Assembly (NCBI GenBank): GCA_965231035.1 | Contig: OZ246409.1 | Location: 29,001-61,000, forward strand | DNA: 32,000 nt | Reading direction: 5' to 3' | From: an uncultured Muribaculaceae bacterium | GTDB taxonomy: Bacteria; Pseudomonadota; Alphaproteobacteria; Rs-D84 | In this document: positions 13,260-14,801 of the stretch, one piece after another | Layout: every line of letters starts with the position of its first letter | Numbering within the stretch: position 1 is the first letter of the stretch | Program-made: the position numbers and the translations under genes | Notes under the pieces: generated by a model | What the model was told of the DNA's origin: nothing | What the model saw: the letters and a program-made list of their open reading frames with translations, nothing else | The model's database searches: none

Positions 13260-14801
13260 TTGAACACTTCTGATTTTGATTTTGAACTGCCAGAAAATTT
13301 AATCGCGTCGCATCCACTGGAACGGCGCGATGCTTCGCGTATGCTGGTTTTGCCAAAAAATGAAGACAAGCATATTCGTGATTTTTTGGATTATTTACAA
13401 CCTGGCGATGTAGTTGTTTTTAATAACAGCAAGGTTATTCCTGCAAGATTTGATGCGTCTGGATATGAAATTACATTGCATACCCATATTTCTGATAATA
13501 CTTGGTGGGGATTTGCCAAAAAATTTAACAAACTGCAAATTGGTGAAAAATTAAAATTAACCGACGGTACAGAAATAGAAGTTGTTGATAAAAACGATGA
13601 ATCTGGCTTAGCTGTGAAGTTTTTATGCAATGATGTTTTGTCTGTTCTGGATCGTGTTGGAAAAATGCCATTACCACCGTACATGAAGCGTCCAGACGAA
13701 GAATCTGACCGTGACCGTTATCAAACTGTTTATGCAAACCCGGTTGGCTCTATGGCGGCACCGACTGCCGGGTTGCACTTTACGAATGAAATGCTAAGTG
13801 AAATTGAAAAACGCGGTGCTAAGATTGTAAAGATAACTTTGCACGTTGGCGCTGGTACTTGGATGCCTGTTAAAACCGAAGATTTATCCAAACACAAAAT
13901 GCACAGTGAATGGGGGCAAATCACCACCGAACAAGCATCAATTATAAATTCTGCAAAACGTGTTATCGCTGTTGGTACAACATCTTTGCGATTACTGGAA
14001 AGTGCCGCAGCTTGTCTTATCCCTAGCGAGTGTGAAGTATTACCAGAATGTCAACGATTGGGTATGTCTCCCCCCCCAGAGGGGGGAGTGTCGCCAAAAT
14101 GGCGACAAGGGGGGGAAAATAGAAAATACTCAAATCGTGCTTTATCCGCCGCAAAATCCTTGCGACAAAGTATGACAATGTATGAATGTCTGTTGTGGAA
14201 AAAATTACGCAAATCACCGAATGGATTTGCTTTTCGCAAGCAACATCCAGTTGGAAAATACATTGTTGATTTTATAAACTTGGATAAAAAATTAATCATT
14301 GAATTGGATGGTGCATTGCACGGGGAAGAAAGACAAATAATTCATGACGCGATACGGGATAAGTTTTTACAAGATTTAGGTTTCAGAATTATCAGATTTT
14401 GGAACAACGAAGTGTTTAAAAAAATGGATATGGTTTTAGATACAATTTATCATTATCTGACTCACGATGATGTTCCGGATTTGGTTGCCCCCCCTCGGCT
14501 AACTTCGTCAGCCACTCCCCCCTCTCGGGGGGGAGACATCTTCCTCTTGGGGGTGAGACAAAAACCTCGCGTTCAACCATTTTGTGCAACCACTGATATT
14601 TTTATAACCCCAGGTTATAAGTTCCAGGTGGTTGATGTTTTGCTGACCAATTTTCATCTTCCTAAATCTACATTGTTTATGTTAGTTTGTGCATTTGCAG
14701 GAACGGACGAAATGAAATCGGCATACGCACACGCAGTGGCCGAAAAGTACCGCTTTTTCAGTTATGGTGATTGCTGTTTATTATTTAATAAAAAGGATTA
14801 A
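13260..14801 (+). CDS. queA: S-adenosylmethionine:tRNA ribosyltransferase-isomerase QueA carrying an in-frame insertion of about 180 aa
   Basis: TTG start. N-terminal [18 protein letters not shown], then [30 protein letters not shown].R.LES, and after the insert [26 protein letters not shown].AFAG and YRFFSYGD. The ORF is 513 aa, against the usual 340-360 aa. Confidence 0.9.
   Translation: [513 protein letters not shown]
14066..14090. repeat. Left G/C-rich palindromic inverted repeat of the queA insert
   Basis: GTCTCCCCCCCCAGAGGGGGGAGTG. It is self-complementary and is the reverse complement of 14513-14537 apart from one base. Confidence 0.85.
14513..14537. repeat. Right G/C-rich palindromic inverted repeat of the queA insert
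   Basis: CACTCCCCCCTCTCGGGGGGGAGAC. Its reverse complement, GTCTCCCCCCCGAGAGGGGGGAGTG, matches the left copy at 24 of 25 positions. Confidence 0.85.

Follow-up and report, generated by a model that had tools for sequence, protein, structure and literature searches.

Introduction

Rickettsia palindromic elements (RPEs; Ogata et al. 2000, reviewed in PMC10969869) are insertions of about 150 bp that encode a peptide only and no enzyme. In reduced alphaproteobacteria, their palindromic DNA interrupts housekeeping genes that are unrelated to one another, keeps the reading frame and is translated along with the rest of the host protein, whose fold and function are believed to be compatible with the insertion (PMC10969869). 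In this study an insertion resembling RPEs in behaviour was analysed in a 32,000-nt stretch of contig OZ246409.1 (positions 29,001 to 61,000; assembly GCA_965231035.1, an uncultured bacterium deposited as Muribaculaceae and placed by GTDB in the alphaproteobacterial group Rs-D84), hereafter called the window. Here the queA gene is occupied by a cassette in which GC-rich terminal inverted repeats (TIRs) of about 55 nt bracket a DUF559 nuclease gene and which, unlike RPEs, belongs to a family that extends far beyond Rickettsia, at GC contents from 29% to 69%. The favoured reading, to which a probability of roughly 70% is assigned, is that of a selfish, nuclease-carrying TIR element residing in frame in a loop of QueA and nested in a decayed copy of an earlier element.

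The Vsr-like (EDxHD) homing endonucleases, such as I-Bth0305I, share the catalytic fold of the window nuclease (template modelling score, TM, 0.79) and are likewise selfish nuclease genes found in conserved host genes (PMC3239194; PMC2677866). They reside in group I introns, in inteins or between split-intein halves and possess an extra DNA-binding region, whereas the window element has no splicing vehicle, is bounded by TIRs and keeps the frame of its host. The closest published concept found was the ShiLan domain (PMC11855218), an in-frame insertion without intein or intron features that is predicted to loop out and that carries an endonuclease. In that case, however, the enzyme is of the HNH type, is encoded out of frame and sits in a phage methylase with no TIRs or transposable elements of the miniature inverted-repeat kind (MITEs) reported, as opposed to a DUF559 domain in the host frame of bacterial chromosomes between structured TIRs. 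Closest among solved structures, by both sequence and fold, is 3HRL (NGO0050 endonuclease-like protein), a free-standing protein of about 100 aa outside any known insertion context. The window element combines features of several known kinds, namely a TIR element, a homing nuclease and an in-frame palindromic insert.

In systems of repetitive extragenic palindromic (REP) sequences and REP-associated tyrosine transposases (RAYTs), including REPINs, an enzyme gene is located between inverted GC-rich hairpin repeats that also occur as non-autonomous copies. The RAYTs are HUH/Y1 transposases, and the REPs are extragenic. Inverted hairpin repeats are present in the window element too, but an assignment to REP/RAYT was rejected, its enzyme being a PD-(D/E)XK nuclease of the DUF559 family rather than a Y1 transposase; its copies are, moreover, often intragenic and in the host frame. 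A further resemblance is to whalefall-1 (Rfam RF01762; Weinberg et al. 2010, PMC2864571), which was published as a non-coding RNA motif unconnected with DUF559 or mobile DNA. Like the TIRs, it has a C/G hairpin, a hairpin that is variable and covaries, and a GGGTGAGG-type tail. DUF559 domain-containing protein has also been found enriched among predicted inversion targets (PMC9881135), an enrichment that fits the inverted-repeat flanks of DUF559 described below. The original prediction made for this locus had supposed that DUF559 was undescribed as an in-frame, TIR-bounded module, and no published description of such elements was found in the literature that could be reached, a coverage that excludes most subscription journals and leaves the novelty provisional.

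Results

An uninterrupted queA reading frame contains a complete DUF559 domain

The reading frame at 13260-14801 of the plus strand extends over 513 codons without an internal stop. The Pfam family Queuosine_synth matched residues 3-252 and a second, C-terminal stretch (E 4.7e-116), and membership of the QueA family (PF02547 / NF001140 / TIGR00113) was established with the NCBIfam equivalog NF001140 (417.7 bits against a cut-off of 324) and with TIGR00113 (355.8 bits against 267.45), each again in two stretches. Residues 295-400 matched DUF559 (Pfam PF04480) with an E value of 1e-32 and 112.7 bits (gathering threshold 20.6), covering profile positions 4-108 of 109. The claim that QueA is interrupted in frame, without a stop codon, by a complete DUF559/Vsr-like domain was therefore confirmed, as was the contrast noted between G/C-rich insert ends and an AT-rich host gene, the GC content being 0.53-0.57 at the ends of the insert and 0.28-0.43 in its body and in the flanking gene. 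The parts of the locus are as follows, with the evidence for each in brackets.

13260-14801, plus strand: chimeric queA open reading frame (ORF), 513 aa, TTG start, continuous through the insert to the stop codon (ORF list, Pfam, NCBIfam QueA equivalog, identical database protein)
13260-14009, plus strand: N-terminal host part of QueA, residues 1-250 (Pfam residues 3-252; colinear with the empty orthologue L001:3001-3990)
14010-14063, plus strand: decayed copy of the left TIR, a putative relic of an earlier element or landing pad, holding the outer repeat arm 14012-14023 (alignment versus shuffles)
14064-14118, plus strand: left TIR, about 55 nt (inverted repeats, arm comparison, folding, own TIR covariance model)
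14068-14088, plus strand: hairpin A of the left TIR, CTCCCCCCCC-AGA-GGGGGGAG (folds as predicted)
14090-14106, plus strand: hairpin B of the left TIR, GTCGCC-AAAAT-GGCGAC (folds as predicted)
14109-14115, plus strand: G-run of the left TIR
14142-14459, plus strand: DUF559 / Vsr-like PD-(D/E)XK nuclease domain, in frame with queA as residues 295-400 of the ORF (Pfam, 3HRL, AlphaFold, Foldseek)
14485-14539, minus strand: right TIR, about 55 nt, reverse complement of the left TIR, with C-run 14488-14494, hairpin B' 14497-14513 and hairpin A' 14515-14535 (inverted repeats, arm comparison, folding, own TIR model)
14540-14567, plus strand: decayed partial copy of the right TIR (14543-14560, CCTCTTGGGGGTGAGACA), then remnant codons of the host loop, ..QKPR (direct repeat 89%, alignment versus shuffles)
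14568-14801, plus strand: C-terminal host part of QueA, to the stop codon (second Pfam stretch; colinear with empty orthologues)

Identical copies of the 513-aa protein were recovered from NCBI, Logan and ENA (3 contigs, the longest of 716,531 bp). The 90% cluster of this protein has a second member of 513 aa, from JGI/IMG (5 contigs, the longest of 848,746 bp). As the same protein was obtained from independent sources and contigs, assembly chimerism was ruled out as the origin of the fusion.

Close relatives of QueA have an empty site

An orthologue without the insert, P0005 (DNA L001; 329 aa), is 96% identical to the window protein over the N-terminal half (BLASTP) and about 93% identical over the whole aligned host part. 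At the insertion point it reads LLESAA-DENG-LKTFSGTTDIF, with a plain DENG loop, and the L001 DNA aligns with that of the window on both sides of the insert. A search for an empty site in relatives had been proposed as a check, and such sites were found in P0005/L001 and in many other QueA proteins; the existence of close orthologues without the insert argues against an ancestral segment shared by all. Occupied and empty alleles of one site in close relatives, as looked for in homing elements, were thus present both between the window and L001/P0005 and in many other QueA pairs. The loop concerned tolerates insertions and deletions, since its length varies among empty QueA proteins (DENG versus MDNRALPESQRKPR). 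Over the 321 codons shared by the host parts of the window and L001, dN (nonsynonymous divergence) was 0.029 and dS (synonymous divergence) was 0.37, and the resulting dN/dS of 0.08 places QueA under strong purifying selection along the combined lineages.

The gene order at 12345-17212 of the window is era-queA-M16 peptidase-tgt. In L001 it is era, a 338-aa ORF without a Pfam match, queA (91% nucleotide identity to the window) and tgt, with no M16 gene.

Two QueA sites are occupied repeatedly and by several nuclease subtypes

The 120 best QueA matches of a capped search were aligned on the empty reference, a sample from which frequencies are not unbiased. Inserts of at least 8 residues were essentially confined to two positions, after residue 34 (site 1) and after residue 254 (site 2), the window cassette occupying site 2, a variable surface loop between ..LLESAA and ..PFCxTTDIF. 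DUF559 inserts of 144-241 aa were carried by about 80 of the 120 proteins, with two copies in roughly 10. Short inserts of 13-34 aa, mostly Pro/Gly-rich, were observed at the same two spots, with a few at residues 66-68, and resembled either flank of the full cassettes (e.g., SPLARGVPAGRGVAI and TTPAGATRHPSTGGELAR).

Clustering of the inserted nucleases at 55% identity or more gave three groups, of 75, 11 and 8 members, all three present at both QueA sites; the group of the window nuclease also has members in RuvX and QueH. When the host parts were placed on a neighbour-joining tree, the presence of DUF559 required at least 25 changes at site 1 and at least 22 at site 2, compared with about 32 and 40, respectively, when labels were shuffled, and occupancy differed even between QueA proteins that are 96-98% identical in the host part. 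Presence/absence polymorphism and repeated gain and loss were in this way established for the two QueA hot spots. From the sequence comparison, patchy occupancy together with the occurrence of the subtypes at both sites indicates repeated gain, loss or replacement rather than vertical inheritance of an ancestral segment.

The element is bounded by long, locally palindromic TIRs and lies within decayed TIR copies

When the right flank was reverse-complemented and compared with the left, the element proper could be placed at 14064-14539 (476 bp). Its TIRs consist of hairpin A (a C-run, a 3-4-nt loop and a G-run; pattern CTCCCCCC-N3-4-GGGGGGAG), a short spacer, hairpin B and a further G-run. The inverted repeat 14064-14090 / 14513-14539 spans 27 nt at 96% complementarity, such that the two complementary 25-mers of the original prediction were found where it had placed them, although the true TIRs measure about 55 nt and not 25. 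The hairpins proposed within both 25-mers and in GTCGCC-AAAAT-GGCGAC were borne out by folding. Only four overlapping matches to the palindrome pattern, at two sites, were found in the 32 kb (0.01 expected from shuffles), and the insert accounts for all six C or G runs of at least 6 nt in the window. Read in frame with queA, the TIRs encode Pro/Gly-rich linker peptides (right, ...ATPPSRGGD).

Hairpin B differs between the two arms of the window element (left GTCGCC/GGCGAC, right GCTGAC/GTTAGC), each version still forming a hairpin. As hairpin B is unlike between arms of one element, long-range TIR-TIR pairing is not the conserved feature, and an RNA panhandle between the TIRs, which was predicted but is to be expected of any TIR pair, was rejected in that role. 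Judged from these arms, it is local palindromy, rather than left-right pairing, that appears to be maintained.

The outer imperfect inverted repeat that had also been reported (14012-14023 / 14550-14561, 12 nt) does exist, at 83% complementarity, but is part of a decayed older TIR copy and not the end of the current element. The stretch 14010-14063 aligned colinearly with the intact left TIR (score 9 versus 1.8 +/- 1.2 for shuffles, 1 of 1000 shuffles scoring as high), and 14540-14567 aligned with the right TIR (score 12 versus 2.1 +/- 1.2, 0 of 1000 as high). The QKPR/RKPR loop motif is also present in empty QueA proteins. Since both flanks align as decayed TIR copies, the outer repeat is best read as a relic of an earlier occupant or as a landing pad.

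The TIR of the window ends in ATG on both strands, at 14064-14066 and 14537-14539 (ATGTCTCC... / ...GGAGACAT), and insertion either way round would therefore bring in a potential start codon. Among free-standing DUF559 ORFs, several start within the TIR-encoded peptide (e.g., P0123, MPPPAKGGG...).

TIRs accompany DUF559 genes across the family and also occur without them

A flanking inverted repeat across the DUF559 gene exceeded all shuffles in 56 of 70 testable loci, embedded and free-standing, with GC contents of 29-69%. The common architecture is CCCTCTCCCC-TTGA-GGGGAGAGGG, sometimes hairpin B, and then GGGTGAGGGG. TIRs, as sought in classical insertion sequences (ISs) and MITEs, were about 55 nt long in the window and 26-55 nt in the relatives examined, those of the window and of L011 being clearly homologous, so that the terminal repeats predicted for the window element were found in its relatives as well. 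An alignment of 16 arms backed both hairpins, the share of pair cells that were paired being 86%, as opposed to 70% for shuffles and 49-57% for slid controls, and compensatory changes were seen, 12 of 16 pairs being altered on both sides. A covariance model (R1) was built from these 16 arms, the two of the window included; on the latter, both in its training set, it scored 57.2 bits (left, E 3.6e-11) and 59.6 bits (right, minus strand, E 9.9e-12). In 352 kb of DNA, R1 gave 87 matches, 76 of which were within 200 nt of DUF559, a zone amounting to 18% of the DNA (binomial p 4e-44), and 59 of these neighbouring matches were in loci outside the training set. Matches were mostly on the plus strand upstream and on the minus strand downstream of DUF559, which is the expected inverted orientation.

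The full-length whalefall-1 model also matched both TIRs of the window on opposite strands, at scores below its gathering threshold of 37 bits (14066-14117, plus, 19.3 bits; 14487-14537, minus, 15.2 bits). In a cassette within RecJ (L014) it reached 30.3 bits on both arms (E 4.8e-4; 2497-2549, plus, and 2918-2970, minus). These sequence matches suggest that the whalefall-1 'RNA' is the end of the DUF559 element family.

Nuclease-less derivatives exist, both as 105-nt two-TIR elements and as solo TIRs. In L011, a related alphaproteobacterial contig, site 2 of queA is occupied by a cassette of the same subtype as that of the window, and in the tgt gene, a neighbour of queA, a 105-nt element consisting of a left TIR fused to a right TIR lies in frame (L011:4839-4940; CPAC-TGCLPLLEGECHREAMTRGSSPQSAMPTAPFKEGGTRNH-LSRAY). 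The tgt genes of the window (16970-17080) and of L001 are empty at this site (CPACKLSRAY). The L011 cassette and the 105-nt element stand in the classic relationship of an autonomous element to its MITE. No DDE, HUH or serine/tyrosine transposase was detected with Pfam in the element, the sole ORF of which is DUF559, and in the loci examined no transposase was seen adjoining the cassettes and no gene other than DUF559 was enclosed by the TIRs.

Related cassettes are found in many unrelated hosts and as free-standing genes

A scan of metagenome contigs, confirmed by tblastn, yielded more than 589 loci, and among the best 80 of these, which do not give unbiased frequencies, most were free-standing ORFs of 120-160 aa. 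In-frame cassettes were found there in QueA (both sites), RecJ, RdgB, LipB, QueC, RimI, a TIM-barrel enzyme and an M14-like amidase. A word-indexed search with the insert returned 46 matches, QueA chimeras not among them, and added RuvX, CyaY, QueH and YkuD as hosts. An exhaustive search returned 21,793 cluster representatives at an E value of 1e-3 or below; among the best 150, which were examined, 73 were at least 250 aa long, mostly with an internal DUF559 domain, and spanned 59 Pfam families, with DUF559 itself and the MTES_1575 model that overlaps it counted among them. Their hosts include HsdS (29), Pol-beta nucleotidyltransferases (10), RecO (5), MnmE, MiaA, UvrC, NadE, AroA, PyrF and Mrp. 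Related cassettes were thereby located in frame in more than 50 other protein families.

The possibility that the cassette is unique to this locus was not borne out, as cassettes of the same subtype were present at the second QueA site and in RuvX, QueH, MnmE and RecO, with more distant DUF559 cassettes in dozens of hosts. Peptides encoded by the flanks recur across hosts, the right flank ATPPQGGSD being similar to ATPPSRGGD of the window. Free-standing copies have a stop codon before the right TIR, whereas embedded copies have none. The same element family is present in many unrelated host proteins and as free-standing genes, and the window element is one member of a large family and not a one-off.

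Several individual members were also recorded. The HsdS hosts are specificity subunits of type I restriction-modification systems (29 of the 73 long representatives, e.g., P0179, P0181, P0187 and P0194), and their cassette is flanked, for example, by ITPPLRGSR... and ...ATPPQGGSD. At L012:2284-3351, in a single open frame, a DUF559 cassette is flanked by a PriA-like N-terminus and a MiaA-like C-terminal part, a fusion that may be a rearrangement by recombination between two cassettes. The P0007 cluster has a 246-aa member annotated as primosomal protein N', and P0176 (377 aa) contains three tandem DUF559 domains (Pfam 284 bits, 3 stretches).

The nuclease is predicted to fold as a separate domain and is conserved

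The closest solved relative by sequence was PDB 3HRL (E 1.2e-20). AlphaFold2, run with a 63-sequence alignment, gave the nuclease (residues ~290-405) block-mean predicted local distance difference test (pLDDT) values of 79-95, mostly above 88, with values below 50 for the linkers 253-287 and 409-433 and moderate confidence for the QueA part. Foldseek matched the model to QueA (1yy3/1vky), to 3hrl (TM 0.89, rmsd 1.8), to I-Bth0305I (3r3p, TM 0.79) and to Vsr (1vsr). Outside the nuclease, the insert consists of about 70 P/G-rich residues that are predicted to be disordered. The suggestion that the insert might be an autonomous domain on a surface loop therefore agrees with the model, in which a confidently predicted nuclease domain is carried on disordered linkers. 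The residues D87, E98, D100, H112 and D113 (insert numbering) were invariant in 7 members of the subtype and are putatively catalytic. Among the nuclease cores of the window, L010, L011 and L012, identity is about 70%; because dS is saturated, their dN/dS could be given only as an upper bound, 0.15 or less. On these codon comparisons the nuclease is under purifying selection, as is the host part.

Other classes of insert were considered and rejected. An intein was not supported, there being no Hint/intein Pfam match at E values up to 0.1 and no C-terminal His-Asn. A group I/II intron or known RNA was likewise discarded, as no Rfam family reached its gathering score, with sub-threshold small-RNA matches only, and the reading frame is uninterrupted. 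One of these sub-threshold matches, to Gut-1 (RF01706; 14509-14595, plus strand, 26.4 bits against 50), runs from the right TIR across the decayed copy of it into the beginning of the C-terminal part of QueA and is probably a chance likeness between serial hairpins. A scan of 20 related loci at Rfam gathering thresholds found tRNAs only, and PHROGs gave marginal matches only.

Other features of the window

The 345-aa ORF at 11198-12235 (minus strand) has a dCMP deaminase domain only at residues 174-297, preceded by an N-terminal extension of about 170 aa without a Pfam match, an arrangement that is shared by L001 (331 residues). Four large ORFs had no Pfam match at E values of 1e-5 or below, namely 2231-4792 (plus, 853 aa), 18785-21223 (minus, 812 aa), 22934-24331 (plus, 465 aa) and 17844-18746 (plus, 300 aa).

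Discussion

The proposal that a selfish element landed in a loop of QueA, after the manner of RPEs but with an enzyme, is supported by the empty sites, the TIRs, the other hosts and the independent assemblies. Each of the outcomes named beforehand as speaking against an insertion (no DUF559 match, an ancestral segment common to all relatives, a cassette confined to this locus, assembly chimerism) was resolved in favour of insertion. The element would be transcribed and translated as part of QueA, its GC palindromes yielding disordered, Pro/Gly-rich linkers whichever way they are oriented, and the nuclease would fold as an autonomous domain hanging off the loop, so that QueA would stay functional. 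We infer translation through the insert from the universal conservation of frame, the composition of the linkers, the structure model and the selection on the host gene. The nuclease, probably as a dimer, would recognise the palindromic hairpin-A sequence of the TIR, and a break made at a solo TIR or landing pad would be repaired from, or ligated to, a copy of the cassette. Homing-like spread of this kind would account for the re-use of hot spots by different subtypes, the nested relics, the full palindromes at both ends, the MITE and solo forms and the lack of target-site duplications. Where genomes are AT-rich and densely packed with genes, the insertions expected to survive would be only those that lie in tolerant loops, in frame, in sense orientation and without a stop, which would explain why the element is observed inside proteins. 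Mobility most likely depends on the element's own nuclease, as the association of TIR and nuclease is conserved across phyla and no other gene is enclosed in the loci examined.

Several observations weigh against this interpretation. Neither the cassette nor its palindrome recurs elsewhere in the 32-kb window, and the databases yielded no close paralogue of the window cassette, the best being 53-64% identical; similarly, a scan of genome contigs with the insert protein gave a best match of 60% identity and no close copy, and the scan of metagenome contigs gave no close copy either. The window copy may therefore be old or immobile. The junctions are not clean, the codons of the DENG loop having been replaced rather than simply split, and no consistent target-site duplication was detected at 7 cassette junction pairs, at the tgt MITE or at the QueA site-1 junctions; a GGCAC repeat in L010, considered as a candidate duplication, proved to belong to TIR variants. 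Instead of landing pads, the solo TIRs might be footprints. The covariation of the hairpins is equally compatible with a role at the RNA level, and whalefall-1 was graded 'certainly RNA' by the Rfam curators. Nuclease activity and its target, a transposition or homing event, translation of the chimera and the activity of QueA with the insert are all deduced from sequence, and the QueA and metagenome samples are sets of best matches, with the bias in frequencies that this brings.

It is conceivable that a TIR/MITE of the whalefall-1 kind is moved by a trans-acting host or IS enzyme and that DUF559 is cargo with a function in repair, defence or addiction. Nuclease-less MITEs and solo TIRs do exist in frame in genes, strand transfer is impossible by a nuclease alone, apparent direct repeats at the peptide level flank some cassettes and a DUF559 protein is a Vsr-like repair enzyme in Caulobacter (PMC12907096). 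This explanation is nevertheless considered unlikely, as the TIR-DUF559 association holds from 29% to 69% GC and over at least 3 nuclease subtypes, 76 of 87 TIR-model matches adjoin DUF559 with no other gene enclosed in the loci examined, no transposase lies beside the cassettes and the nuclease is still under purifying selection inside host proteins. That purifying selection would also suit a domesticated fusion, in which DUF559 was co-opted, for instance for nucleic-acid binding or repair, and is inherited vertically and no longer mobile. So would the lack of another copy in the window or of a close paralogue, the substantial divergence from the empty orthologue (dS 0.37) and the number of hosts that are queuosine-pathway or tRNA-modification enzymes (QueA, QueC, QueH, MnmE and MiaA). 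Such a fusion is nonetheless judged very improbable: occupancy is patchy over the host tree, requiring at least 22-25 changes per site, and some QueA pairs 96-98% identical differ in it; individual subtypes are shared by unrelated hosts and by two sites; the linkers are disordered, the position is a loop and the TIRs are intact at 96% complementarity; and the host families have no common function.

The insert might also be removed before the mature enzyme is formed, by RNA processing at the long TIR-TIR duplex or at local hairpins, with cleavage followed by RtcB-type ligation, by ribosomal bypass, or by protein splicing or proteolysis of an unrecognised kind, returning QueA to about 330 aa. 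The two TIRs do pair as a long helix in the predicted fold of the insert RNA (z -7.0), the hairpins covary like structured RNA and resemble an Rfam RNA motif, and tRNA-splicing endonucleases share the PD-(D/E)XK fold (PMC3424549). Removal would, however, not need an open frame, yet the insert is open and in frame, at variable length, in every embedded case examined (at least 50 host families); the unlike hairpins B show that long-range pairing is not conserved; and there is no Hint/intein domain and no intron family, while free-standing members are ordinary genes. Removal is on these grounds held to have little chance of being correct. An assembly chimera or a sequencing artefact at GC-rich homopolymers merits mention, the data being of metagenome type and homopolymer runs error-prone, but its probability is negligible given an identical 513-aa protein in independent sources and contigs and dozens of other assemblies in which a homologous cassette occupies the same codon position. 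None of these alternatives fits the combination of frame conservation, patchy distribution and TIR association as well as a selfish element.

A broader proposal, that DUF559 cassettes form an unrecognised class of autonomous mobile element in which the sole protein, a Vsr-like nuclease of about 110 aa, recognises its own hairpin-forming TIRs, the TIR is whalefall-1, spread proceeds by cut-and-repair or ligation into palindromic landing pads, MITEs and solo TIRs are spawned and the element persists in frame within loops of essential proteins with no splicing at all, is put forward tentatively, as possible rather than probable. If it is true, these cassettes (about 0.45-0.55 kb) would be among the smallest autonomous elements known, and the large, uncharacterised DUF559 family would acquire a primary biological role and a DNA target, with the TIR palindrome as candidate substrate. 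An orphan Rfam RNA motif would probably be re-assigned to the end of a mobile element. Over-long annotated proteins such as QueA, RecJ, RecO, MnmE and HsdS with an 'endonuclease domain' would be explained. The QueA hot spots and the other host sites would mark loops that tolerate insertion of a whole domain, which would be useful in protein engineering, and a compact nuclease with a palindromic target of about 20 bp could serve as a tool enzyme. Selfish nuclease genes would be seen to colonise essential proteins as a tethered domain, with neither intein nor intron, and the idea embodied in RPEs would be extended from peptides to enzymes.

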